From Candidatus Heimdallarchaeota archaeon (GTDB lineage: Archaea > Asgardarchaeota > Heimdallarchaeia > Hodarchaeales > Hodarchaeaceae): 64,000 bases of DNA. Where the stretch lies: positions 1 through 64,000 of the forward strand of contig JBHLSH010000008.1 in assembly GCA_048881705.1 (NCBI GenBank), read 5' to 3'. This document shows positions 4,416 to 16,803 of this stretch, in pieces. The notes beneath the pieces were generated by a model, which saw only the letters and a program-made list of their open reading frames with translations, searched no databases and was not told the origin of the DNA. The position numbers and the translations under genes are program-made. Each line of letters opens with the position of its first letter. The first letter of the stretch is position 1.

Positions 4416-4828
4416 CTAAACCCCTTCAAGCAACTGCAGGAGGGTGGATATTTAAAGTCTGCCTACAATCATTTTTGATCTTCCAGAGCGATCCTCTTTT
4501 CTTCTCTTAGACCGATGAGTTCAACGTCAATCTCTGGCCTTGTACACCCTGTTTACTCCGTAGTAACATTTTGTATACGAAACTGAGACCAGCACTTCCT
4601 AGCATCGCTTTAGTTACAGTTGTAAGACATATTGGTGAATTCGTCGCTATTTGATTTGGTATTATCGTCCTTAGGAGGATTCGAAATTCACCAGAAAGTT
4701 CAAATCCGTTTTCCACTGGCAAAAAGAAAAGCCTCCAAGAATGGGAAGACTAGGAAGGGTTCGAGCTGATAGTACATAGATCACGCAAAATTACCAGAAA
4801 ATGGGTAATCTTTCTCTTCCTGCTCATA

Positions 4829-7699
4829 GTGTTTCTTGTTCAGAGTTCTGCTATATATATCGTATTTTCCGTTCAGAATTCGACATCTTATATCATTCAT
4901 GATCCCATTTTCATCGATGGAAATCAGGATTTTTACGTACAAGCCAGCATAGAAAATTGGGCGGGAAATGGAACTCTGGCCTCCCCGTATACCATTGAAG
5001 ACCTCTATATGACAGGTTCGACTGATTTAATTCGAATAGAAAATACAGATGTGTTCTTTGGCATCAATAACTGCTCTATAGGATTTGGATCTAATGGGAT
5101 TTCACTGGTTAATGTAACCAACGGGCGGATTACAGGGAATGACATCTCCTATAATGAAGATAATGGAATTGATCTTTGGTATTCTACAAATATTCTCATT
5201 TCAGGGAATACAATCACCGACAACGATTTCACCGGAATAAATCCGAATTACCTTGAAAATACCACGATCTCAGGGAATGTAATATACGGTAACGGTTGGG
5301 GGGGAATAGATGGAATTTTCTCAAACAGAAGTTCCATAATTGGCAATACTATTTCTGAGCATTGGGGAACTGGTATTCATATGTATGCCTGGACTGGTAC
5401 TATCATTGCCAGTAATGACGTAAGCGGTAGCGGAATCAATGGCATCGGCCTTGAAGAGTCGTCCAATATCACTATAGCCAGCAATACCCTTACCAGTAAC
5501 GGTGAATCTGGGATAAATCTAGCCTACTCTGGGAATAATCGCATTATTGACAATACATTAGTAAACAATGGTCTAAGTATTGATGGCTGGGAAATCGAGC
5601 ACTATTTACAAGCTGAAGTGGCCAACAATTCAGTTAATGGCAAGTTAATAGTTTATTGGCAGCAGATCACTGGCGGAGCCGTTCCGATGGATGCTGGCGA
5701 AGTTATTTTGGTGAATTGCACGGGAGTAGAGGTTGCTGGACTGACCATTGAGAATACTTCGACAGGGATCAGTGCTGTTTTCGGTGCCAATATAGCAATT
5801 CACGATAATAACATTTTCAATATGATAAGATCTGGAATTAATATAGGAAGCACACAGAATACTACTGTAACGGGGAATACTCTTACCAATAATTCTGATG
5901 GCATCATTTTTCAAAATTCTATATCTGGAATCATCACTGGGAACAAAATTAGAAACAGGGGTGGTTGGGGACGGGGAATGGGAATAAGATTGGATTATTC
6001 CCATAAGATTACTGTTTTTGGAAACAACATCAGCTATAACGAAAACAATGGCATTTGGTTAGAATCATCCAGTAGTAACACTATTTACAACAACAATATC
6101 ACTGATAACCGACACAATGGCATTCGGTTACGCGATTCCGGTAATAATACTGTTTCAGGAAACAACATCATTAATAATTCACACCATGGTATTCGTGTTA
6201 AGGATTTAGGAAACAATACGGTTTTGGGTAATACCGTGGATGGAAGCGGCGCTACTGGGATTGATATCAATAACGCAGACAGTAACATTATTTTAGGTAA
6301 CAAAATCAGGAATAATGGGAGAATTGGTATGGCTCTTGTTTCCTCGGGAAATAATCGAATTTCTGATAACATCCTGGTAAACAATGGTTTCGATGTTGCA
6401 GGTTGGGATCTCGAGGATTATCTGCAAGATAAGGTGGACAATAATACCATCAATGGGAAACTCGTAGTTTATTGGCAGCAGCGGACAGGAGGAACCGTCT
6501 CAGGCGATGCAAGTGAAGTGTTTTTGGTTAACTGCCAGAACGTTGCGGTGATCGGTTTAACCCTCTCTGAGGGTTCGTTAGGGATAGTGGCCGTCTTTGG
6601 CAACGATTTGAAAATTTCCGGAAATGAAATAATTGGTACTACTATTACTGATAGAGAGGGGATTCGTTTGTATCAAACAATGAATAGCATCATTTCCAAC
6701 AATTCAGTCAGAGATAACGGAGGAGATGGTATTGGTCTGGTTACCGCAGATTTCAATGACATTTTGGATAACAACATCAGTAACAACGGAGCATGGGGGA
6801 TTACGCTATTTGATTCCGAAAAAAACATGATTAGAGGAAATCTTGTAACACAAGCGACTGGTGGTATTAACATAGAATCCTCAGATAATTCCACCATTGC
6901 CAGTAATACCATTAAGGATAATCGAAGGACTGGTCTAAGGATTAGCTGGTCGTCAAGAAGCAATATTTCTGGCAATACCATCACCAACAATGGAGATTGG
7001 GGAATATACCTGGAGGAATCGAGTGAGAGCATAATCGTAGAGAATACCATTATGAGGAGTGGTGAGGCAGGCATCTATCTCCTTCAATCATACAGATGTA
7101 ATGTTACCATCAATTTAGTCAAGGACAACGGAAGGAGCGGTATAGATCTATCGCAGGCGGAGAGAGCTGTCGTTTCAGGGAATACAGTTAGGAATAACGA
7201 CCTCTGGGGAATTAGGTTGGGTTTTTCAAGGGATAGTTTAATAATGAAGAATACTGTAGACGCCAATAGACTCGGTGGCGTACGCCTGGCTGATTCTGAT
7301 AGTAGCAGGGTCATCGGTAACCTGATCGCCAATAATTCGTACTATGGAATCTATCTAACTCAAGTAAGAACATGCGTGATCGCTGGAAATGATTTCATTG
7401 GAAACAATAGGGGAAATTCACAAGCCTTTGATAACAGTTTGAATAATACGTTCATTCTTAATTACTGGAATGACTGGACGGCCCCAGATAACAATCGAGA
7501 CGGAGTGGTAGATCAACCTTACCACATTGATGGAGCGGCAAATAACTATGATAACTTTCCTCTGACTAGGTCCGTAATAAACCCCGCGGCTGCATCCCTT
7601 GATCATTTTGTTAACGTTTCGGTTCTGGTGCTCGTGATTCTTGGCGCTTTAGGGATTTCCATTCGGATTAGAAGCGGGCAAAAGAAAGCCTGGATTTGA
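4829..7699 (+). CDS. Large right-handed parallel beta-helix (NosD/CASH-type) surface protein; true start probably about 4766-4772
   Basis: Dozens of GI-x-L-xx-S-x-NN-x-I-x-GN repeats, many N-x-S/T sequons and a C-terminal TM with a basic tail. The frame is open upstream to 4754 and encodes a signal peptide (RKITRKWVIFLFLLIVFLV). Confidence 0.9.
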   Translation: MFLVQSSAIYIVFSVQNSTSYIIHDPIFIDGNQDFYVQASIENWAGNGTLASPYTIEDLYMTGSTDLIRIENTDVFFGINNCSIGFGSNGISLVNVTNGRITGNDISYNEDNGIDLWYSTNILISGNTITDNDFTGINPNYLENTTISGNVIYGNGWGGIDGIFSNRSSIIGNTISEHWGTGIHMYAWTGTIIASNDVSGSGINGIGLEESSNITIASNTLTSNGESGINLAYSGNNRIIDNTLVNNGLSIDGWEIEHYLQAEVANNSVNGKLIVYWQQITGGAVPMDAGEVILVNCTGVEVAGLTIENTSTGISAVFGANIAIHDNNIFNMIRSGINIGSTQNTTVTGNTLTNNSDGIIFQNSISGIITGNKIRNRGGWGRGMGIRLDYSHKITVFGNNISYNENNGIWLESSSSNTIYNNNITDNRHNGIRLRDSGNNTVSGNNIINNSHHGIRVKDLGNNTVLGNTVDGSGATGIDINNADSNIILGNKIRNNGRIGMALVSSGNNRISDNILVNNGFDVAGWDLEDYLQDKVDNNTINGKLVVYWQQRTGGTVSGDASEVFLVNCQNVAVIGLTLSEGSLGIVAVFGNDLKISGNEIIGTTITDREGIRLYQTMNSIISNNSVRDNGGDGIGLVTADFNDILDNNISNNGAWGITLFDSEKNMIRGNLVTQATGGINIESSDNSTIASNTIKDNRRTGLRISWSSRSNISGNTITNNGDWGIYLEESSESIIVENTIMRSGEAGIYLLQSYRCNVTINLVKDNGRSGIDLSQAERAVVSGNTVRNNDLWGIRLGFSRDSLIMKNTVDANRLGGVRLADSDSSRVIGNLIANNSYYGIYLTQVRTCVIAGNDFIGNNRGNSQAFDNSLNNTFILNYWNDWTAPDNNRDGVVDQPYHIDGAANNYDNFPLTRSVINPAAASLDHFVNVSVLVLVILGALGISIRIRSGQKKAWI

Positions 7700-7813
7700 G
7701 CTGGGAATGTACTGTATTTACGGGAGTGGCTCTTAAGTAGAGAATCCAATTGTACCTGAGTTTGAATTGATTTTTCATCAAGAGATTTCTAACGGAGTTA
7801 GTGGATTTCCTCA

Positions 7814-9118
7814 TTACTTAAAGATAGAGTCAACAAAAGCAATGGAGGAGAATTTCCTAGTTATCGAACTACTTTTATATATCAAGAACACTAAAAAAAG
7901 AGTGGAAATCAAAATCCCTACTTGGAGGAGGAACAAGAGATCAACGATAGGCGAAGGAAGCAGGATTTGAAAATATTTCGTCATCCTGATGAAGTCTATG
8001 GCTGCAATCCCCAGCATTCCTCCAGTAAGGATACAGAACAGGTTGAATTTATTCTGAGGAAGAAGGACAAGAGTCGGATAGTACCACACCCAGTACCACG
8101 GCCAAGCTGTTGGATAGATCTTTAGGAAGATACTCAAGATTATAAACGGAACCCAATGAGTTCTCCCCCGCAGTTCTGACAAATACAAGGTGCGAGAAGA
8201 AACAATGGAAGGGATGTCAAACGCGGTGAAGATCGCTAGTCCTAATATAGCTGTGGACATTAAAGAAGATGGTGTTAAATATTCCAACAGAAAGGGATTG
8301 GTATTGTATAACTTGGTATATTGTCTTGGAACTAGTAGATAACCGAAAAACCAGAAGACAAATCCCGAGAATAGGATAGGAAACGAAAGCAATAAGATAG
8401 TTCCACCTGCTAATAGAATATTCAGGAATGTCTGCCTCCTCTGTTCCGAATCAATGATGACGAAATATGGAAGCAGTATGATCGGGACATATTTCCAGTG
8501 AAATCCTAATCCAATGAAGAGGTAGCTCAACTTGCGATGATTAGGATGTAGGTTAAGGGGAAAGAGGACAAAAAAAACTGTGAAAGCGACAGGTTGGCCT
8601 TCTATAGCGGATAAAGGAAGAGTTAAAACCAAGTACGAAAGAAAAAAGATTCCCGCATCCAGTTTTCGTCCCTGATCTCCCCAGTTTTTATTCTTAATCA
8701 GATTGGACATGAAAAATACATTAATGATATCAATTAGAGAAAAAATCCATTTAATTATAAAAAGAGGGAGAGAAAAGAGAGCAACGAAGGCCCAGAAGAG
8801 GAGCTGGATGGTTGGATAGTTGAACGATGTTAAGGGATGTGCCAGTAACCCCGAAAAAGGATCAACGACATTGTACTGTGGATCCAGTTGTACCGGGGTC
8901 ATATCATAAACGTCAAATCCATAATGCCAAAAAAACTTACCATAGAACAGATTTCGTAACAGATCGGTTGTGAACAAGGGAGGGATAAAAACGCCAAAAC
9001 AAAAATGGAGGATGATGATGGTAATCAGAATGTATTTTAGGCATCCAAAATCCTGAATGAACCGGATTCCTATGGCGAATAGCTCTCGTCTCGGAGGTAG
9101 AAAATTAAGGGGTACCAC
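7814..9118 (-). CDS. Polytopic GT-C-fold glycosyltransferase-like protein (GT87/DUF2029-like)
   Basis: About 10 TM helices, an external loop after TM1 with an acidic residue (FTTDLLRN...FNYP), and a WKYVPIILLP motif typical of lipid-linked-donor GT-C enzymes. Confidence 0.6.
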   Translation of the reverse strand: MVPLNFLPPRRELFAIGIRFIQDFGCLKYILITIIILHFCFGVFIPPLFTTDLLRNLFYGKFFWHYGFDVYDMTPVQLDPQYNVVDPFSGLLAHPLTSFNYPTIQLLFWAFVALFSLPLFIIKWIFSLIDIINVFFMSNLIKNKNWGDQGRKLDAGIFFLSYLVLTLPLSAIEGQPVAFTVFFVLFPLNLHPNHRKLSYLFIGLGFHWKYVPIILLPYFVIIDSEQRRQTFLNILLAGGTILLLSFPILFSGFVFWFFGYLLVPRQYTKLYNTNPFLLEYLTPSSLMSTAILGLAIFTAFDIPSIVSSRTLYLSELRGRTHWVPFIILSIFLKIYPTAWPWYWVWYYPTLVLLPQNKFNLFCILTGGMLGIAAIDFIRMTKYFQILLPSPIVDLLFLLQVGILISTLFLVFLIYKSSSITRKFSSIAFVDSIFK

Positions 9119-9412: not shown

Positions 9413-11584
9413 CTACGAAGCGATGGCCCCTGGAGGAATGATCTCCCACATAATCCGCCAGATATAGATCCAATCATGCGTAGTTTTATAGGCCAGTTCA
9501 TAATAGTCAGCATATGCCGCATAGGCAGGAGAAAACCCCTTTTCTGCAGGGGCGTGATCCGATATGGGGGCATAGGCCGTGATTCGGTCGTACGGGTCTT
9601 GTTCGACTTCAGCGGTGAATAGGGCCCAAAAAACCGAGTCATAAAACTTGTTAATGTATCCTTCAATGAACTGCCCTCGATCATCGTAATCCAGGTAATC
9701 AGTTTGGTTGATTTGGACAATATTGCCACTTTTTTCGCCAATCCTCACAAACCAAGGAACCTTACCGAGATCTGAATCTGCATGGGGAGGAACGCCGCCA
9801 TAACCATCTGAGACGAGGAGGATGATATAGGAGACATCATAGATCTTTGCGATTTTGAGACTTTCCCGGGGATTCAAGACCAGCATGCAGCCAATATTGG
9901 CAATTTTGGTGCTGTTTATGGTCGCATTATCTACCAGGATAGTTGTATTCGAGTTTCCACTAATCCAATACCCGTAATCCCACCAGGACGCCACAGTACC
10001 ATCATTAATGGTGACGTGATAATCAAGCCACGCGATGGCTTCTTGCCAATCATTGCCAATGATCCAACCATTCTCTCCTACAACAGGCGTAAGAATCGAC
10101 GGCGCGTAAATGCTTTGGACAACCGCCTCGCTAGCCAGCATCACCGAGGAGAACAGGAAGAGGCCGATGAAGGCAAAGGCGATGGCTGTATGTTCATTGG
10201 TCAGGGGTTGGCTAATACGGATCTTTCGCCGAGAGAGGGCAAACCTTTCCTGAAACGTGAGCACAAAGGGAAGTAGTGTCTGGTCAACACCTCTCGCTAT
10301 GAGTAAGGATGCCGCTGGGGCTAAAATAAGGGCGAGTCGTACCATACTTCCCGCAAAGAAGATGGAAGTAACACCGAACAGTAGTAAAAGGAAATTTCTC
10401 TCCGTGGGTTGTTCCCAGAGATAATATACGGTAAGGGGCAGGAACACGATTAGAATTCCTATGTTACTAAAAAACGCCAGCCAAGTAACAACCTTATATT
10501 CCGACACGGATTCGAAGATGGGCGTCTCAGCACGAAAAAATGGCAGTATGACCGTAGCAAATTTGGAAGACAGGTTGGTTAAAACACCACTCAACAGCAA
10601 GATGATGACCCCCACACCAGCAAGAATAATCAGATATGGAAGGAAGGGACGAGTCCGATCATAGACCAAAGTTGTATCATAGTATTTACCAAAATAATTC
10701 CATACTGCCACTAAGACAAGGAAGCCGACCGCTCCCAAGGGGATTAAACTATCAATAGATAGGAGTGATGTTGGCCCATTGCGGGGGATGAGGGCCATAA
10801 TGAAAGACCCAATGAGGATGGAGCCAGAATATGATATTAGCAAGCGATCCGAATATTTCTTGAACAGGACCAGTAAGAACGCGTGAAGAGCTAATAGGTT
10901 AAAGACATAAGTGGATGCTCCCCAGGAGCCTGATAGTACACCTAGTGAGAGACCAGCAAAGATCGCACTGAAAATGGAATCGGTTCGCAAAGCTCGGGAG
11001 TAGAAATAGAGACTGAGAACTAGAAATAGAATTCCTAACCCTTCATTGTCAAAAAAACCTGCAGTGGTTCGCTGGAGATGGCCTGCAGAAATGGCCAGCA
11101 ACAATGCTGACAAAAGCCCAACTTTCTTATTGGCCAGTTCTTTCCCCAAGAAATAGATTGCCATGGTAGTCAAAGATCCCATAATCGCTGGTTGAAAATA
11201 GGCAATAACCCTTAACGGGATATCGATTCCTAAAAAGAGGGCCACTTCATGAAGAAAAACGGCAGAGAGAGGAGTGCCGAGGTATTGAGATTTCCCCCAA
11301 TGCCGACCTTCGGGATACCAGGTCTGGTTGTCTACCCATGACAGAAAGGCGAATAGTCCGTGCTCAGAAATATATTCAGCGGCCCGTAACTGGGAATAGG
11401 GATCATTGGCAGACAGGATTACTTCATACTGAAAAAAAGGTAAAATTCGTAGAATGAACGCTATCACAAAAATGAGAACCAAAGAGGAGTAAAGAAAGAA
11501 ATATTCTCTGGTAAAGGTCGTTGATGCGAAATGGTACCGAGTTTTGAGATCATTGGCTATCCTAGTTACAAGGCCGTGTGCCAA
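9413..11584 (-). CDS. aglB: Oligosaccharyltransferase AglB/STT3
   Basis: WWDYG motif, DNAT, GFFDNEG (DxE), SVSE and NDPY motifs, a multi-TM N-terminal region and a soluble C-terminal domain. Confidence 0.97.
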   Translation of the reverse strand: MAHGLVTRIANDLKTRYHFASTTFTREYFFLYSSLVLIFVIAFILRILPFFQYEVILSANDPYSQLRAAEYISEHGLFAFLSWVDNQTWYPEGRHWGKSQYLGTPLSAVFLHEVALFLGIDIPLRVIAYFQPAIMGSLTTMAIYFLGKELANKKVGLLSALLLAISAGHLQRTTAGFFDNEGLGILFLVLSLYFYSRALRTDSIFSAIFAGLSLGVLSGSWGASTYVFNLLALHAFLLVLFKKYSDRLLISYSGSILIGSFIMALIPRNGPTSLLSIDSLIPLGAVGFLVLVAVWNYFGKYYDTTLVYDRTRPFLPYLIILAGVGVIILLLSGVLTNLSSKFATVILPFFRAETPIFESVSEYKVVTWLAFFSNIGILIVFLPLTVYYLWEQPTERNFLLLLFGVTSIFFAGSMVRLALILAPAASLLIARGVDQTLLPFVLTFQERFALSRRKIRISQPLTNEHTAIAFAFIGLFLFSSVMLASEAVVQSIYAPSILTPVVGENGWIIGNDWQEAIAWLDYHVTINDGTVASWWDYGYWISGNSNTTILVDNATINSTKIANIGCMLVLNPRESLKIAKIYDVSYIILLVSDGYGGVPPHADSDLGKVPWFVRIGEKSGNIVQINQTDYLDYDDRGQFIEGYINKFYDSVFWALFTAEVEQDPYDRITAYAPISDHAPAEKGFSPAYAAYADYYELAYKTTHDWIYIWRIMWEIIPPGAIAS

Positions 11585-11633: not shown

Positions 11634-12344
11634 TTAATCTCGTAAAGGCACGAGATCGGAAATCGCGAGATAATCTTCCACGATGTGCAATTGATTCTCC
11701 TCTACCTTAATCAGGCCTTGTTTGCGAAGATTCGTGACATAATAAGAGATAAGGGCCCTACTATGTCCAGTAAACGCAACGAGATCCTTTTGAAGACATA
11801 TCCCATTGTTATTTGAGATATGTGTCAGAATTGCGGCTATTTTGGGATTTCTGGTCAAAGCTAACCACGACTTTTCCTTAATCGAATAATGAGCAGAACG
11901 ATCAAAGAAATGTCGACATCGGCCTAATTTCATAGACTCAATAGTCATCTCCTTCAACTCAAGATTGTAAAGATGATATTGGATCACACCTAAAGCGAGA
12001 TCAGTTTCTCTTTGGATTTCTCTAAGCGTGATTCCTGGGTTTTGCGTTATAGTCTCCTGTATTAGATCTCTATTCTTAGATAGTTTAGTTTCCTCACGAA
12101 AATGGTCTTGGGAGTCTAAAGACGTATGTGCACCTAATAATATCATGACTTGATGTATAGAAGTCGCAGAAGATGAATTCGGAGATGTGATTAGATGAGA
12201 AAATTCAGTTCCCGTTGCACCAGATGTTGGCGATATTAAATATTGGAAATTAGAGAAAATCCCGATCATCACAAAAACTAAGACCATTAATTGAAGGAAT
12301 TTTATAATCTTCGTCTTTGTGAGTTTTGGAAGGATTGTCTCCAC
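11634..12344 (-). CDS. Membrane-anchored winged-helix transcriptional regulator (tandem wHTH)
   Basis: N-terminal TM (FLQLMVLVFVMIGIF), a Ser/Thr linker, a second hydrophobic patch, then wHTH1 (IQETITQNPGITLREIQRETDLALGVIQYHL) and wHTH2 (QKDLVAFTGHSRALISYYVTNL). Confidence 0.8.
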   Translation of the reverse strand: METILPKLTKTKIIKFLQLMVLVFVMIGIFSNFQYLISPTSGATGTEFSHLITSPNSSSATSIHQVMILLGAHTSLDSQDHFREETKLSKNRDLIQETITQNPGITLREIQRETDLALGVIQYHLYNLELKEMTIESMKLGRCRHFFDRSAHYSIKEKSWLALTRNPKIAAILTHISNNNGICLQKDLVAFTGHSRALISYYVTNLRKQGLIKVEENQLHIVEDYLAISDLVPLRD

Positions 12345-12496: not shown

Positions 12497-13990
12497 TTAC
12501 AAGTAGAACTCTAGGATCCCAAACTTCCGACTATCATCATCCAGAATTTCACTATATCGTTTCAAAATAGCTACGCAAACATAGAGCCCAACCGCTGTTG
12601 TGAACAACCCAAGGATTTGTGCGATCATAAGTAGCACTAGGAAACGTAAGCCCCAGGATCTGGCTGATCGTATTTGGTATGGTTGGTTATTTAGGATATC
12701 GTTATTGTTTTGCGAAAAACTGTCAATCTTGAAGAACCCAATCACCGGTAGCATCATTAGGATATCAGCTCTTTCTGGATCCAATGGTTTTAAGATTTGA
12801 CCCAAGAAGTAGATAGAGAACCCTACGAAAATCAAACCATACATAATTCCTCTAGTCAGAGCAGAGAGCGGATCCACGGGACTGATCAATCCCGAATCAC
12901 CGATTAGTGATTGGGGGGGGGTTAATAAGTAAGCAAGTCCACTTTCGGGTACATATTGCCCGGAAACATGATCCGCTCTAAACGTCCCTAACAAAGAAAC
13001 GAGGATATCGGGCGGCTTCTGGCCCCCACTTGCACCTGCATTCCAAACCACCTGAGCCAGAAATGATATACTTGAGAACATGACCGAAGTTAAAATCACA
13101 GGAATAAGCAGAAAAAAAAGGATGTTTCCCTGATACTCGCAATCTTGCCTCTCTGTTGGTTGATCTTTGATGCATATCTTGAATTTAAAAGCTCCAATGT
13201 AGTTTAACAAGAGGAAAAAGATAATTGTAACCAAAAAGGACGATAGTGAATACGCAGGGAGGACTAGGTTATTTTGTGGATCATATCGAAACAATAGTGC
13301 CACTATTGCGGCAAACACGTTCTCTTGATTGATCCAAGAAAGAAAAGCTAATATTAGGCCTCGATTTGATAAGATGTCGTTCGTACCCTCCAAAACCGCC
13401 TGAACAGAAAAAAGGTACATGAATAGATCAAGACCTATTGTACTAAGGATAAATAGGGCTATCCCAGAACCATATCCCCATCCTTTAGAGATTATTTCAT
13501 CTAGATAGATTGCGATAATTCCCCCTACGACTAATTGGCCAAAGATAATTATCTGTCGATCTACGGTCAAGTTAACACCAAAATACTCGCCTAGCATCAC
13601 TAAAAAGGCGCCAAGAATGGTAAAAGTGATTGCCATACCTTTAAGACTCGCATTATAGGCAGCCTTTCCTTTTACGGACGTAAAATCGTTGTTGATAGTT
13701 CTTCTAAGAAGGATGAATCGCATAATCAGGCCAGCTAGAAGAATCGGGAATATTCCTAATGTTCCCAAGTATCCAAGGGGCGGGGCATAAATCACCCTCA
13801 GGTAGGCAAAGGGATCTGCTTCTCCAACGTGCGCTCCAATTAGTGGGATGGAGATCAGAAGCGAGTACGCCGCAAACACGATTAATGTCCAAGAAACCTT
13901 CTCTATAGGGGAAAGATCACGCGAAGGCCTTTTAACCGCGGGGAATATTGTTCCGATCCGTCCGAAGAATACAAGAAACATCTGAATCAT
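12497..13990 (-). CDS. secY: Divergent SecY/Sec61alpha paralog
   Basis: SecY hallmarks FPAVKRP, EKVSWT, DPFAYLRVI, LGIFPILLAGLIM, QLVVGGIIAIYLDEIISKGWGYGSGIALFI and YLLTPPQSL. The C-terminal cytoplasmic loops are degenerate. Confidence 0.9.
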   Translation of the reverse strand: MIQMFLVFFGRIGTIFPAVKRPSRDLSPIEKVSWTLIVFAAYSLLISIPLIGAHVGEADPFAYLRVIYAPPLGYLGTLGIFPILLAGLIMRFILLRRTINNDFTSVKGKAAYNASLKGMAITFTILGAFLVMLGEYFGVNLTVDRQIIIFGQLVVGGIIAIYLDEIISKGWGYGSGIALFILSTIGLDLFMYLFSVQAVLEGTNDILSNRGLILAFLSWINQENVFAAIVALLFRYDPQNNLVLPAYSLSSFLVTIIFFLLLNYIGAFKFKICIKDQPTERQDCEYQGNILFFLLIPVILTSVMFSSISFLAQVVWNAGASGGQKPPDILVSLLGTFRADHVSGQYVPESGLAYLLTPPQSLIGDSGLISPVDPLSALTRGIMYGLIFVGFSIYFLGQILKPLDPERADILMMLPVIGFFKIDSFSQNNNDILNNQPYQIRSARSWGLRFLVLLMIAQILGLFTTAVGLYVCVAILKRYSEILDDDSRKFGILEFYL

Positions 13991-14026
13991 GTTTTTTCCT
14001 CATTAGGATAGTTTTCGATACCCATA

Positions 14027-14227
14027 TTACCTAAATGATCTTCCTAGGATTAAAAAAACTATCACCCGGATCAAGAATGAGAATAATCCTAGGCCTCCAA
14101 ATCCAATTGCAGTTTTTTGGATGAGCTTAATAACTTCTGATTTCGTAGGAGGATAGGGAACTAATTGAATTTTTCCGTTCCTCTTAGGTAATCTTAGATT
14201 TACCCTCTTCTCCTCTGAATTTTCCAT
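14027..14227 (-). CDS. secE: SecE/Sec61gamma-like subunit
   Basis: 66 aa, with a PPTKSEV hinge (compare KPTxxE) followed by a TM containing GFGGLGLFSFLI. It lies directly upstream of secY. Confidence 0.8.
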   Translation of the reverse strand: MENSEEKRVNLRLPKRNGKIQLVPYPPTKSEVIKLIQKTAIGFGGLGLFSFLIRVIVFLILGRSFR

Positions 14228-14555
14228 TGATAAATCCCTAATACTCTGTTTTTTTGGGAATAAATATCCTCATCTAATCATGAAACGAGATTGATAACCT
14301 TTATCAATCCTACAATCCTATGCAACGTCCAGTTTTGTTTATAACATTAGCAAGAACATTTCGTTTTATTGCTTCTGGTACAATTATTTGACACTGACTT
14401 TCCTTAATGTTTTTCTCTGTTCCGATTTAATAGGGGCGCTATAATCGCCGGTCTGAGGTTCTTCTTTCCAAAGGATTTAATATGTCTATACCCAGATTCC
14501 TTTTCATACCAAGTTTTAATCCGAATTGATGTTACTTTGAATTGAGAGAATCGAT

Positions 14556-15398
14556 ATGACATATGGTAATCCGACCCTAAATTTAGCATCGCCAGCACAA
14601 ATCGAAATTCCGATAAAAATTGCCGGATTAACCAAGAGTTACGGAACGGTGGGCGTCCTCGAAAATTTCGATTTAGTGTTAGACCATAAAGAGTGTTTAG
14701 GGATCATCGGCCCAAACGGAGCTGGAAAAACCACCCTCTTTAGATGTCTAATGGGATTGGTGAGAATTCAACAGGGAAATATTAACCTTCTAGGGCAAAG
14801 TGTGGTAACGAACGGAAAAATATCTCCACAACTTCGTAGGATTCGGCCCAGAATAGGGTACGTACCAGAATCTTTAGAAATTTACTCATTTTTGACAGTA
14901 AGGGAATATCTTTGCTTCATAAGCAAATTGTTTGTTTTAAGGGAAGATGAGTATAATCAGTATTCACGTTACCTAATCCGCTTATTTGAGCTAGAAGAGT
15001 GGGAAGAATCCCTTATCAAACATCTATCAACGGGGAACTACCAAAAGCTAATATTATGCACTGCTTTGATTCATCAACCAGAAGTTCTTATTTTAGATGA
15101 GCCATTTTCAAATTTGGATATAAAAACCAGAAAGAAAACAAAAAATATTCTTAAAAAGTTCATCAGTCGTGGAATACCAGAACTAGATATAGATGTGCCT
15201 GGTTCGATCATCATTGCTTCCCATATTCTCGCTGATCTAGAGGAATTATGTACACAAATAGCTCTTCTCCATTCGGGGAGGATAACTTGGAAAGGAACCA
15301 TAGCGGAAATAAGGCAGGATCAAACTAAGGCAAGATCTTTTGAATCATTTGTTTTGGAGGTCTGGGACAATGAAACAGAAAAAGATTGGCAGGAGTAG
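14556..15398 (+). CDS. ABC transporter ATP-binding protein (exporter type)
   Basis: Walker A GPNGAGKTT, signature LSTGNYQK, Walker B LILDEP and H-loop ASH. Confidence 0.95.
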   Translation: MTYGNPTLNLASPAQIEIPIKIAGLTKSYGTVGVLENFDLVLDHKECLGIIGPNGAGKTTLFRCLMGLVRIQQGNINLLGQSVVTNGKISPQLRRIRPRIGYVPESLEIYSFLTVREYLCFISKLFVLREDEYNQYSRYLIRLFELEEWEESLIKHLSTGNYQKLILCTALIHQPEVLILDEPFSNLDIKTRKKTKNILKKFISRGIPELDIDVPGSIIIASHILADLEELCTQIALLHSGRITWKGTIAEIRQDQTKARSFESFVLEVWDNETEKDWQE

Positions 15399-16803
15399 AT
15401 TGCTTGTCCAATTTATGTGGCTAGAATGCAAAAAACTGTCTAAATTCTGGGATGCGATCCCCAAAATATCCATTCTGCTATATTCGATGGTTTTTGTTGA
15501 GTGTCTCCTAGCGGCGGCTTTTGGTTGGTACTACCCATTATTCCTGCATAGTCATCCGCGAGCGCTTGTCATTTCAAGTCTGTTGGTATTATCAATAGGC
15601 ATTTTTATATTCACTAGTAGTTCGTTTATCGCTCCAAGTAAGGAGAGTTTTTTTGCAGCTAATCCCTTTCATGTTGATGAATCAGATCTGAATATTCTTT
15701 CACAAACGCTAAACGACCCCATATCCTGGGCCCTTATCGGGCTGATCCGAAATTCCCTCAAAGTATTACTATATGTAGTTTTCTTGGCGTTGATCATTGT
15801 TTCGTATGCATTTAGTGTCCAGATCCCTTGGCCAAACATAGTAATAGTTCTGGTTGCCCTTTATCTAGGGATCCAAGTCTTTATGTTCGCTGGATCGTTT
15901 GTATATAGTTTCACGGAGGAATTCTTGGAACAATTGAGACCAAGATGGCGAGAACAGAACTTTTCGCTTCTCAATAATGTTATTTCAACAGTTGCCATGA
16001 TAATTGTTCTAGGTGGATTGGGGGTCCTGGCATTTATCGATACTTCTGAAGGAACTAGTTTCGTCATCTTAGAACAGATGGTTTTGGATTTGTGGTTCAT
16101 TCCCCCTTTTAATCTCATTTATTTGGTTTTAGCGGCTCTTTCTAAGACATGGCCTCAAACCTACCTGATTCAAGCAATGATTAGTTTATTGTTCGAATGG
16201 GCAATGGCTCTCGGGCTTTTCTTTCTTATCCACAGCAAAATCGATCCTTTAGCCCGGCTATACGAGAGACGACCCCTGGTAGATGCCCTCTCGGAGAGTT
16301 TCGATCTTGCTTTAGCAGGCTATTTCATTTTCACTTCTATCTTTCAAAGTGGAGCCTCATGGTTTAAGTTTCTGCAATATAAGAACCAATTTCTCCATGA
16401 AGCAGTGAGTCTTCTCCAAAAAGACCTTCTTCTCCTCGATAAATATCGTATTTCCTTTACCTATACTCTCACAGTGCTAATATATGGCATTATTGTAGTT
16501 TTTTGGCTTGCATCGGCAGCTAATATCATTCCCTGGTTTACTCCGGCCGGAATTCTCGCAATCATTGCTATTACAGTGTTTCTCTGGTTTAAAGAGTCAA
16601 GGCTTCTCGTCAAAAACCTCAAAATATCGTTTAGGGCCGTATTAATGGAAAAACTATTTCTCTCGTTTTTTCTTTCCTGCTCTCTTCTTCTCGCGATTTT
16701 GATCATAAACGAAGGAACGTTGTTCCTAGGGGGAATAGTTGTTTATGCATTCAGTTTTATCTTCGGGCTCATCTATTATAGTATCAAGCCAATTCCATAT
16801 TGA
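15370..16803 (+). CDS. Putative ABC exporter permease
   Basis: About 10 TM helices and an overlap with the ATPase 3' end. The ATG at 15370 is preferred over the TTG at 15340. Confidence 0.75.
   Translation: MKQKKIGRSRLLVQFMWLECKKLSKFWDAIPKISILLYSMVFVECLLAAAFGWYYPLFLHSHPRALVISSLLVLSIGIFIFTSSSFIAPSKESFFAANPFHVDESDLNILSQTLNDPISWALIGLIRNSLKVLLYVVFLALIIVSYAFSVQIPWPNIVIVLVALYLGIQVFMFAGSFVYSFTEEFLEQLRPRWREQNFSLLNNVISTVAMIIVLGGLGVLAFIDTSEGTSFVILEQMVLDLWFIPPFNLIYLVLAALSKTWPQTYLIQAMISLLFEWAMALGLFFLIHSKIDPLARLYERRPLVDALSESFDLALAGYFIFTSIFQSGASWFKFLQYKNQFLHEAVSLLQKDLLLLDKYRISFTYTLTVLIYGIIVVFWLASAANIIPWFTPAGILAIIAITVFLWFKESRLLVKNLKISFRAVLMEKLFLSFFLSCSLLLAILIINEGTLFLGGIVVYAFSFIFGLIYYSIKPIPY

Follow-up and report, generated by a model that had tools for sequence, protein, structure and literature searches.

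A second, divergent SecY-SecE pair without the canonical ribosome-docking loops in a Hodarchaeales genome: a candidate accessory translocon

A divergent pair of SecY and SecE genes, here termed SecY2 and SecE2, is found in an Asgard archaeon classified in the Hodarchaeaceae (Candidatus Heimdallarchaeota archaeon; Asgardarchaeota, Heimdallarchaeia, Hodarchaeales). The pair lies in a stretch of 64,000 nucleotides (nt; contig JBHLSH010000008.1, positions 1 to 64,000 of the forward strand, GenBank assembly GCA_048881705.1), which is referred to as a whole as the window. The source assembly, called G000, comprises 3.96 Mb in 155 contigs and is 91% complete. According to the list of open reading frames, the minus strand of the window carries five co-oriented genes separated by short gaps. 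These genes and two short patterns read from the sequence are as follows:

14260..14267, minus strand: TATA-like box ATATTTAT, a candidate archaeal promoter of SecE2-SecY2, 32 nt upstream of the SecE2 ATG
14027..14227, minus strand: SecE2, a paralog of SecE/Sec61 gamma of 66 amino acids (aa) with one C-terminal transmembrane (TM) helix
13998..14001, minus strand: GAGG, a pattern resembling a ribosome-binding site, 7 nt ahead of the SecY2 ATG
12497..13990, minus strand: SecY2, a divergent SecY/Sec61 alpha paralog of 497 aa with the channel core kept and loop 6/7 (L6/7), loop 8/9 (L8/9) and the C-tail remodelled
11634..12344, minus strand: winged helix-turn-helix (wHTH) protein of 236 aa with a basic N-terminal stretch, one TM helix and two winged-helix domains
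9413..11584, minus strand: AglB2, a second STT3/AglB oligosaccharyltransferase of 723 aa with the WWDYG motif intact
7814..9118, minus strand: polytopic GT-C-type glycosyltransferase of 434 aa, one of two copies in the genome; its look-alikes by feature and structure point to GT87/MptA

The gap between the SecE2 stop codon and the SecY2 start codon measures 36 nt and contains the GAGG pattern, which suggests that the two genes may be co-transcribed. As stated in the initial annotation, which was made from the sequence of the window alone, no ribosomal-protein genes flank the pair, judging from the neighboring open reading frames and their Pfam matches. SecE, SecY, AglB and the GT-C enzyme each occur in two copies in this genome, and one copy of each resides in the SecY2 cluster.

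The initial annotation regarded SecY2 as a second copy, and it is indeed not the only secY of the genome. A canonical SecY (Pfam 219 bits) is encoded at C73:3604-5109 and shares 40% identity with SecY2 (E=3e-109). It sits between the genes for S8/L6 and, 7 kb away, those for L15-L30-S5-L18-L19e-L32e, and the canonical SecE is encoded on C134, adjoining Spt5. SecY2 and SecE2 are thus both derived paralogs sitting together, in line with the initial description of a divergent pair. The spc-type ribosomal-protein cluster around the canonical gene is itself broken (C73:189-15331), L32e-L19e-L18-S5-L30-L15 being located about 7 kb upstream of SecY, with S8-L6 on its downstream side beyond an unannotated protein of some 640-660 aa. 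Furthermore, a divergently transcribed homolog of ribophorin I (OST1; 700 aa) lies outside the window at C73:5332-7434 (+) and at L034:4751-6853, and is found with the primary SecY in all genomes of the same genus that were checked. This pairing represents a genomic link between translocon and oligosaccharyltransferase for the housekeeping SecY. The NCBI labels of the metagenome-assembled genomes (MAGs) of this genus vary and include Heimdallarchaeota B3_Heim, Hodarchaeales, Kariarchaeaceae and, in two cases, Thorarchaeota.

SecY2 scores well below the family cut-offs. It matches the NCBIfam archaeal SecY model NF006341 at 152.7 bits (E=1.8e-44), about half of the cut-off of 300, and TIGR00967 at 73.6 bits (cut-off 253.6). 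Human Sec61 alpha is matched over the full length (E=8e-34), and the mammalian Sec61 alpha proteins are its best solved relatives. By these scores, the homology of SecY2 to SecY/Sec61 alpha is far beyond chance. A Pfam hmmscan assigned no family to SecY2 at E<=0.1 and gave no match for SecE2 either, and a six-frame search of the genome with the Pfam SecY model found the canonical copy and missed SecY2. PF00344 is listed for SecY2 in a precomputed table, although both Pfam searches miss it. The AlphaFold2 (AF2) model of SecY2 contains ten long helices, with a mean predicted local confidence (pLDDT) of 76.6 and a predicted template-modelling score (pTM) of 0.79. In a Foldseek search with this model, Sec61 alpha was recovered at TM-scores of 0.73-0.77, and the top 45 matches were all Sec61/SecY chains. 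SecY2 is accordingly predicted to adopt the ten-TM, two-halves Sec61 fold. SecE2 is 43% identical to the canonical SecE of the genome over 51 aa (E=2e-12), matches the NCBIfam SecE model NF006907 below its cut-off of 99 (16.4 bits, E=0.007) and was not picked up by a Pfam SecE search of the genome. It contains a P-x-(K/R)-S-E-V motif, in the altered form PYPPTKSEV pointed out initially, and a C-terminal hydrophobic helix, in keeping with the layout of SecE/Sec61 gamma, a short protein whose amphipathic segment precedes a single C-terminal TM helix.

The cytosolic face of SecY2 was compared in an alignment with 14 canonical-type copies, namely that of the genome itself and 13 others from the genus or class, and the identity and charge of each region were scored against the genome's own canonical SecY. 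Because the reference copies come from the same lineage, the differences represent true departures from the consensus of that lineage. L6/7 is 12% identical to the canonical loop and has a net charge of 0 as opposed to +3, L8/9 is 6% identical with a net charge of -2 as opposed to +3, and the C-tail is 15% identical with a net charge of -3 as opposed to 0. Where the canonical-type columns read ASTQGSLAELGIGP, Y(K/R)G..(S/T)YPIKLLY and MPGWR(R/Q)SKK..ERRLEMYIPT, SecY2 instead reads APPLGYLGTLGIFP (residues 69-82), IKDQPTERQDCEYQGNILFF (across L6/7) and LPVIGFFKIDSF (in L8/9). The YPIKLLY and PGWR(R/Q)SKK motifs are therefore absent, and neither the basic tips of L6/7 and L8/9 nor the basic C-tail is found. 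The proposed loss of the YPIKL-type motif from L6/7 thus holds. The proposed loss of the arginine motif from L8/9 holds for the PGWR element, and two arginines (QIRSARS) stay near TM9; a displacement of the loop arginines into a shifted register is not apparent in the column-wise alignment. AF2 models calculated from equally large alignments (40 sequences each, most of them shared) show L8/9 of the canonical SecY as a helical hairpin (pLDDT 66-74) and that of SecY2 as unstructured (pLDDT 34-45). In yeast Sec61p, mutations in L6 and L8 preferentially affect transport that depends on the signal recognition particle, and the single charge reversal R406E in L8 suffices to abolish ribosome binding (PMC2171681). 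By analogy with this mutagenesis, the loss of the loops means that SecY2 most likely does not dock ribosomes in the conventional manner.

The channel and the extracellular side have fared differently from the cytosolic loops. The six pore-ring positions of human Sec61 alpha (I81, V85, I179, I183, I292, and L449; HMMER alignment, mapped by hand) read I, L, I, I, I, and V in SecY2 and are all hydrophobic. The extracellular loops are well kept relative to the canonical copy, with 59% identity in L5/6 and 69% in L7/8. Synonymous sites between SecY2 and canonical SecY are saturated along the whole gene, and where the two proteins share a residue the codon matches in only about 30% of cases. Gene conversion therefore does not account for the conservation of the outer loops, which have been kept by selection at the protein level. 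In the plug region, ASTQGS is replaced by APPLGY and the glutamate of L.ELGI by threonine. The initial annotation was right that the plug/TM2 sequence is altered, but AF2 predicts the same four-residue plug helix (TM2a) in SecY2 and in the canonical SecY. The polar lateral-gate cluster, T86/Q127/N300 in human and T/E/D in the canonical copy of this genome, reads L/G/S in the alignment of SecY2, and TM3, TM6, and TM8-10 are heavily changed.

A single related genome, G001, carries an orthologous SecY2 locus (L033). Its SecY2 (L033:10062-11555, minus strand) is colinear with and 73% identical to that of the window, and a SecE2 ortholog adjoins it in the same arrangement. Comparison of the two genomes yields a ratio of nonsynonymous to synonymous substitution rates (dN/dS) of 0.22 for the whole SecY2 gene (0.17-0.29 by bootstrap). 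The copy in the window is an intact frame of 497 codons with zero insertions or deletions relative to its ortholog at a dS of 0.74. The G001 gene contains an in-frame TAG, aligned with Cys284 of the window copy at the tip of L6/7; dN/dS is 0.23 before this codon and 0.20 after it. A reading of the TAG as pyrrolysine was considered and dropped, PylS and PylD matches being sub-threshold in both genomes. Lineage-specific departures number 16 in the G001 copy and 21 in the G000 copy. The G001 gene shows no rate acceleration, and its stop codon would therefore be recent, or else an error. Among 149 columns that are invariant in the canonical copies, SecY2 keeps 68, and at 51 the two orthologs agree on a new residue. 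Identity between the orthologs reaches 88-100% in the plug/TM2 and TM5 segments, with 88% of the plug region kept, and L8/9 and the C-tail are partly conserved (0.54 and 0.72), the loop tips being variable. The shared new residues together with the purifying selection indicate that the remodelling of SecY2 predates the divergence of the two species and that the gene has been maintained afterwards. Judging from these substitution patterns, SecY2 in the window is under purifying selection and is not a pseudogene. Relaxed selection leading to pseudogenization, named at the outset as the pattern that orthologs might display, is not what the low dN/dS and the lack of indels indicate outright, though the G001 copy has its TAG.

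Second SecY copies are not confined to these two species. In some species of the genus, the second copy at the wHTH locus is still canonical in sequence and retains the full ribosome loops. In others, a fast-evolving second SecY lacks PG[WF]R and YP.K, has L8/9 deleted and carries a SecE-like helix at its C-terminus. Such SecY-SecE fusion paralogs form at least ten protein clusters, are named "hypothetical protein" where NCBI names them, and include the following:

L046:2443-3957, L047:7008-8513, L048:7037-8557, L049:7516-9024, and L050:7501-8988: SecY-SecE fusion paralogs of about 500 aa (proteins P0042-P0049, P0015, and P0016)

One genome (G018) contains three fusions next to a canonical copy. 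The fusions resemble SecY2 in being fast-evolving second SecYs without either motif that lie beside the same wHTH family, and both forms have R-x-W in place of YIPT..GG before TM9. Furthermore, their C-terminal extension ends in a SecE-like helix (...FLRFIVFVILGRE), the SecE part terminating in ILGR(E/S) as SecE2 does. They differ in that the SecE helix is fused C-terminally and L8/9 is deleted, whereas in the window SecE2 is a separate upstream gene and the length of L8/9 is kept. The fused helix is an independent sign that divergent SecYs of this kind pair with a SecE of their own. An intermediate form, P0071 (519 aa, labelled Hodarchaeales), keeps YPIR and a full-length L8/9 in which PGWR is changed to LGLE and the basic run is neutralized, and has an extra C-terminal TM helix. 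In a tree of all forms, the window-type and fused paralogs are joined with support values of 96-99 in the Shimodaira-Hasegawa-like approximate likelihood-ratio test (SH-aLRT). When the fused forms are left out, the window pair is placed in a polytomy next to the canonical copies of the subclade to which it belongs, and P0071 shifts to another position. A single origin of the two forms is thus a possibility, as the join depends on the inclusion of long branches and may reflect long-branch attraction. A further deep-branching SecY with intact motifs is present on a 2-kb contig of a same-genus MAG (G006:C312:709-2091, L051) and is possibly contamination from another Asgard lineage.

The gene following SecY2 encodes the wHTH protein, which matches the Pfam families HTH_HVO_0163_N, HTH_24, and MarR_2. 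The gene marks the second SecY locus of the genus: in at least 11 related genomes a homolog directly adjoins the second copy, arranged either divergently or in tandem. The family is found in 18 of the 21 genomes of the genus and almost nowhere outside it, and is single-copy in this genome. A Lys/Arg-rich stretch precedes the single TM helix in 11 of the 12 members aligned (alignment A2). Prediction of a complex between SecY2 and the wHTH protein returned a score of 0.00, which amounts to no answer and counts neither for nor against binding.

Downstream of the wHTH gene, AglB2 (Pfam STT3 151.6 bits) is 82% identical to the other AglB of the genome, encoded on C90. Its dS against the main AglB, 1.2-1.45, exceeds the value of 0.54 between orthologs of the main copy, so that AglB2 is, by this measure, not a recent copy; its dN/dS is 0.08. 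The GT-C enzyme has a paralog at C4:46828-48018 (E=3e-93) and no Pfam match, and its nearest Atlas clusters, GT87/MptA_B (score 0.98, TM 0.61-0.69), provide a lead only. G001 contains the main AglB only, and its SecY2 locus lacks AglB2 and keeps fragments of the GT-C gene, with genes for surface proteins in their place. Since AglB2 is old and GT-C fragments are left in G001, the common ancestor of both genomes probably had the whole cluster, part of which was then lost in G001. No AglB was found at the other second-SecY loci of the genus. The initial suggestion of a glycosylation-coupled channel fits the co-oriented AglB2 of this cluster, but the link is conserved neither in G001 nor at those other loci.

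Large beta-helix (NosD-like) proteins and surface-type proteins with DUF7948, beta-propeller and fn3 domains flank the SecY2 locus in both genomes (window 4829-7699, plus strand; L033:10-2880, 4623-7670, and 7748-9055), and it is possible that these are substrates of SecY2. On the other side of the pair, a 280-aa ATP-binding cassette (ABC) ATPase and an overlapping 487-aa polytopic protein (window 14556-16803, plus strand) separate SecE2 from the ADH gene, an insertion when compared with G001. In two other genomes (G018 and G012), ABC ATPases likewise occur beside or near a second SecY. The ABC ATPase and its polytopic neighbor were considered as a conserved partner or motor and rejected, since G001 lacks the two genes and the membrane partners elsewhere are not detectably homologous.

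Taken together, the paralogy of the pair, the loss of the docking motifs, the retention of fold and pore, the purifying selection and the gene neighborhood make it on balance probable that SecY2 and SecE2 form a functional accessory translocon which does not dock ribosomes conventionally and is possibly coupled to glycosylation. SecY2 would be the channel subunit, derived from a SecY duplication at the level of the genus, and SecE2 its own clamp subunit, with the housekeeping SecY and SecE remaining elsewhere in the genome. SecY2 keeps the ten-TM Sec61 fold, the hydrophobic pore ring, a plug segment and the extracellular loops of its lineage, and every cytosolic ribosome-docking element of the canonical protein has been replaced, the tips of L6/7 and L8/9 and the C-tail turning from basic to neutral or acidic. 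Such a channel may handle part of the substrates without involvement of the ribosome, by post-translational transport or after hand-over, and the neighboring winged-helix protein, which is membrane-anchored and specific to the genus, may control its expression. SecY2 is co-oriented with the second copies of AglB and the GT-C enzyme, so that translocation may be linked to a dedicated route of N-glycosylation, in which the addition of glycans on the outside would supply directionality. A stricter version of this model, in which SecY2-SecE2 is physically coupled to AglB2 and the GT-C enzyme and selected surface proteins are ratcheted through the channel by N-glycan addition independently of the ribosome, is considered unlikely.

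Several findings weigh against an accessory translocon of this kind. The constraint on SecY2 is about four times weaker than that on canonical SecY, for which the same two genomes give a dN/dS of 0.056 (flanking genes 0.10-0.16), and SecE2 is near neutral with an overall value of 0.88 (0.55 in the core and above 1 in the N-tail, on few sites). To these add the stop codon in the G001 gene and the tiny clade that the pair represents: the SecY2 form is carried by two species only, and the one close relative among 5.8 billion proteins is an N-terminal piece of the G001 ortholog. Two arginines persist in L8/9 at its membrane-proximal end, directly ahead of TM9. The linkage to AglB2 and the GT-C enzyme is seen in this genome only and is absent from the sole orthologous locus. 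The basic N-terminus of the wHTH protein, read by the positive-inside rule, places that end in the cytosol and therefore predicts winged helices outside the cell, an orientation that would fit poorly with the role of a transcription factor. Finally, SecA was not found in the genome, where the Pfam SecA_DEAD model gave a sub-threshold 20.8 bits in a 939-aa frame on C40, and we know of no motor for post-translational export in Archaea. That a glycan ratchet driven by AglB2 might substitute for the missing motor is speculative.

The weak constraint and the stop codon could also be those of a redundant duplicate in slow decay, which lost the need for docking since the canonical copy does the work, and which has no distinct function. 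This explanation, which we hold to be fairly unlikely, would also accommodate the absence of AglB2 and most of the GT-C gene from G001, the confinement of SecY2 to two species, and the different loop tips of the orthologs. It is difficult to reconcile with a dN/dS that stays well below 1 even at its bootstrap upper bound, with 1.5 kb of sequence free of indels at considerable synonymous divergence, and with constraint that is equal after the TAG. Nor does decay predict that 51 derived residues at otherwise invariant sites are shared, that the plug/TM2 and TM5 segments are nearly identical, or that AglB2 evolves under strong constraint. The G001 copy shows no acceleration, which points to the recent origin of its stop codon.

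It is improbable, to a similar degree as the strict ratchet, that SecY2 still works co-translationally and receives nascent chains via the retained arginines, a beta subunit, or a hetero-oligomer with the docking canonical SecYE, as an Ssh1-like isoform with another substrate range. Besides the two arginines before TM9, the N-terminal cytosolic segment of SecY2 keeps a charge of +3. The second copies that other species keep at this locus, conservative in sequence and with full loops, suggest that the ancestral role of the locus was probably co-translational, and the partial conservation of L8/9 and the C-tail between orthologs indicates that the cytosolic face of SecY2 is not featureless. However, all three canonical contact elements have changed together with a loss of positive charge, the related fused forms have L8/9 deleted outright, and in yeast a single L8 substitution is enough to prevent binding. 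The notion that SecY2-SecE2 is no secretion channel and has been co-opted as a membrane chaperone or insertase, a retro-translocation route, or a sensor acting with the wHTH protein draws on the altered lateral-gate cluster, the conserved wHTH adjacency and the heavily changed helices, but is very improbable, as the pore ring and outer loops, relevant to passage and to external partners, are the best-kept parts and no precedent is known to us for a purely regulatory SecY homolog.

The accessory-translocon reading may be compared with several known systems. The canonical archaeal SecYE-beta and the Sec61 alpha-gamma-beta complex (Methanocaldococcus jannaschii 1RHZ, mammalian Sec61) are clearly homologous to the window pair and share its fold, the hydrophobic pore ring and the single-helix SecE/gamma partner. 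In contrast to these, SecY2 lacks the basic C-tail as well as the basic tips of both loops, L6/7 and L8/9, lies outside the ribosomal-protein neighborhood, and coexists with a canonical copy. Plastids of Arabidopsis possess, together with SECA2, a second SecY with its own second SecE (SCY2-SECE2) beside the housekeeping pair, an arrangement that SecY2-SecE2 resembles within one organism; the plastid system has its dedicated SecA2 motor, whereas no SecA was found here, and the origins are independent. In Gram-positive bacteria, the accessory SecA2-SecY2 system with its Asp proteins exports serine-rich adhesins that are O-glycosylated in the cytoplasm, SecY2 there depending on SecA2 and Asp1-3. 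It shares with the present locus a divergent second SecY clustered with glycosylation genes and, presumably, few substrates, and differs in that the present genome has no SecA, that its linked enzymes, AglB and GT-C, act outside the membrane, and that SecE is dedicated. The neighbors identified at the present locus are a wHTH protein, AglB, a GT-C enzyme and an ABC ATPase, with no search aimed at Asp1-3 or at the cytoplasmic glycosyltransferases GtfA/B of the bacterial system. The divergence of SecA2 and SecY2 in the bacterial accessory Sec system has been described (bioRxiv 10.1101/202358). The yeast Ssh1 complex, which appears among the structural matches (PDB 2WW9), is likewise a lineage-specific Sec61/SecY paralog beside an essential copy. 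Ssh1 docks on ribosomes, acts strictly co-translationally and has the gamma subunit Sss1 in common with Sec61 (see also PMC8503631); SecY2, conversely, no longer has the docking loops and comes with a gamma/SecE of its own. SecY2 thus differs from the second SecYs of Gram-positive bacteria, plastids and yeast in the combination of no SecA-type motor, lost ribosome loops (unlike Ssh1), a dedicated SecE and linked extracytoplasmic glycosylation enzymes. A search of the literature on archaeal and Asgard SecY paralogs found nothing on point, nor any such translocon arrangement in Archaea. The pair in the window is the intact exemplar of this SecY2-SecE2 type and the sole one linked to AglB2 and the GT-C enzyme.

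Post-translational export in Archaea is an open problem, as to our knowledge there is no SecA, no Sec63/BiP and no dedicated machinery for it. A SecY that lacks the ribosome-docking elements, yet is maintained by selection with its pore kept and a SecE of its own, therefore offers a concrete and clonable candidate for such a route. The locus belongs to the Asgard group closest to eukaryotes, in which the canonical SecY adjoins ribophorin I in the genomes of the genus that were checked and, in this genome, the second SecY adjoins a second STT3/AglB. These two neighborhoods are relevant to the question of how the coupling of translocon and oligosaccharyltransferase arose and diversified. Even if SecY2 were merely a decaying duplicate, the locus would still document repeated SecY duplication, SecY-SecE fusion and loop loss in one genus. 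If a ribosome-independent glycan-ratchet route did exist, it would parallel, in a prokaryote closely related to eukaryotes and with an independent origin, the eukaryotic division into co-translational Sec61/STT3A and the post-translational Sec complex/STT3B.

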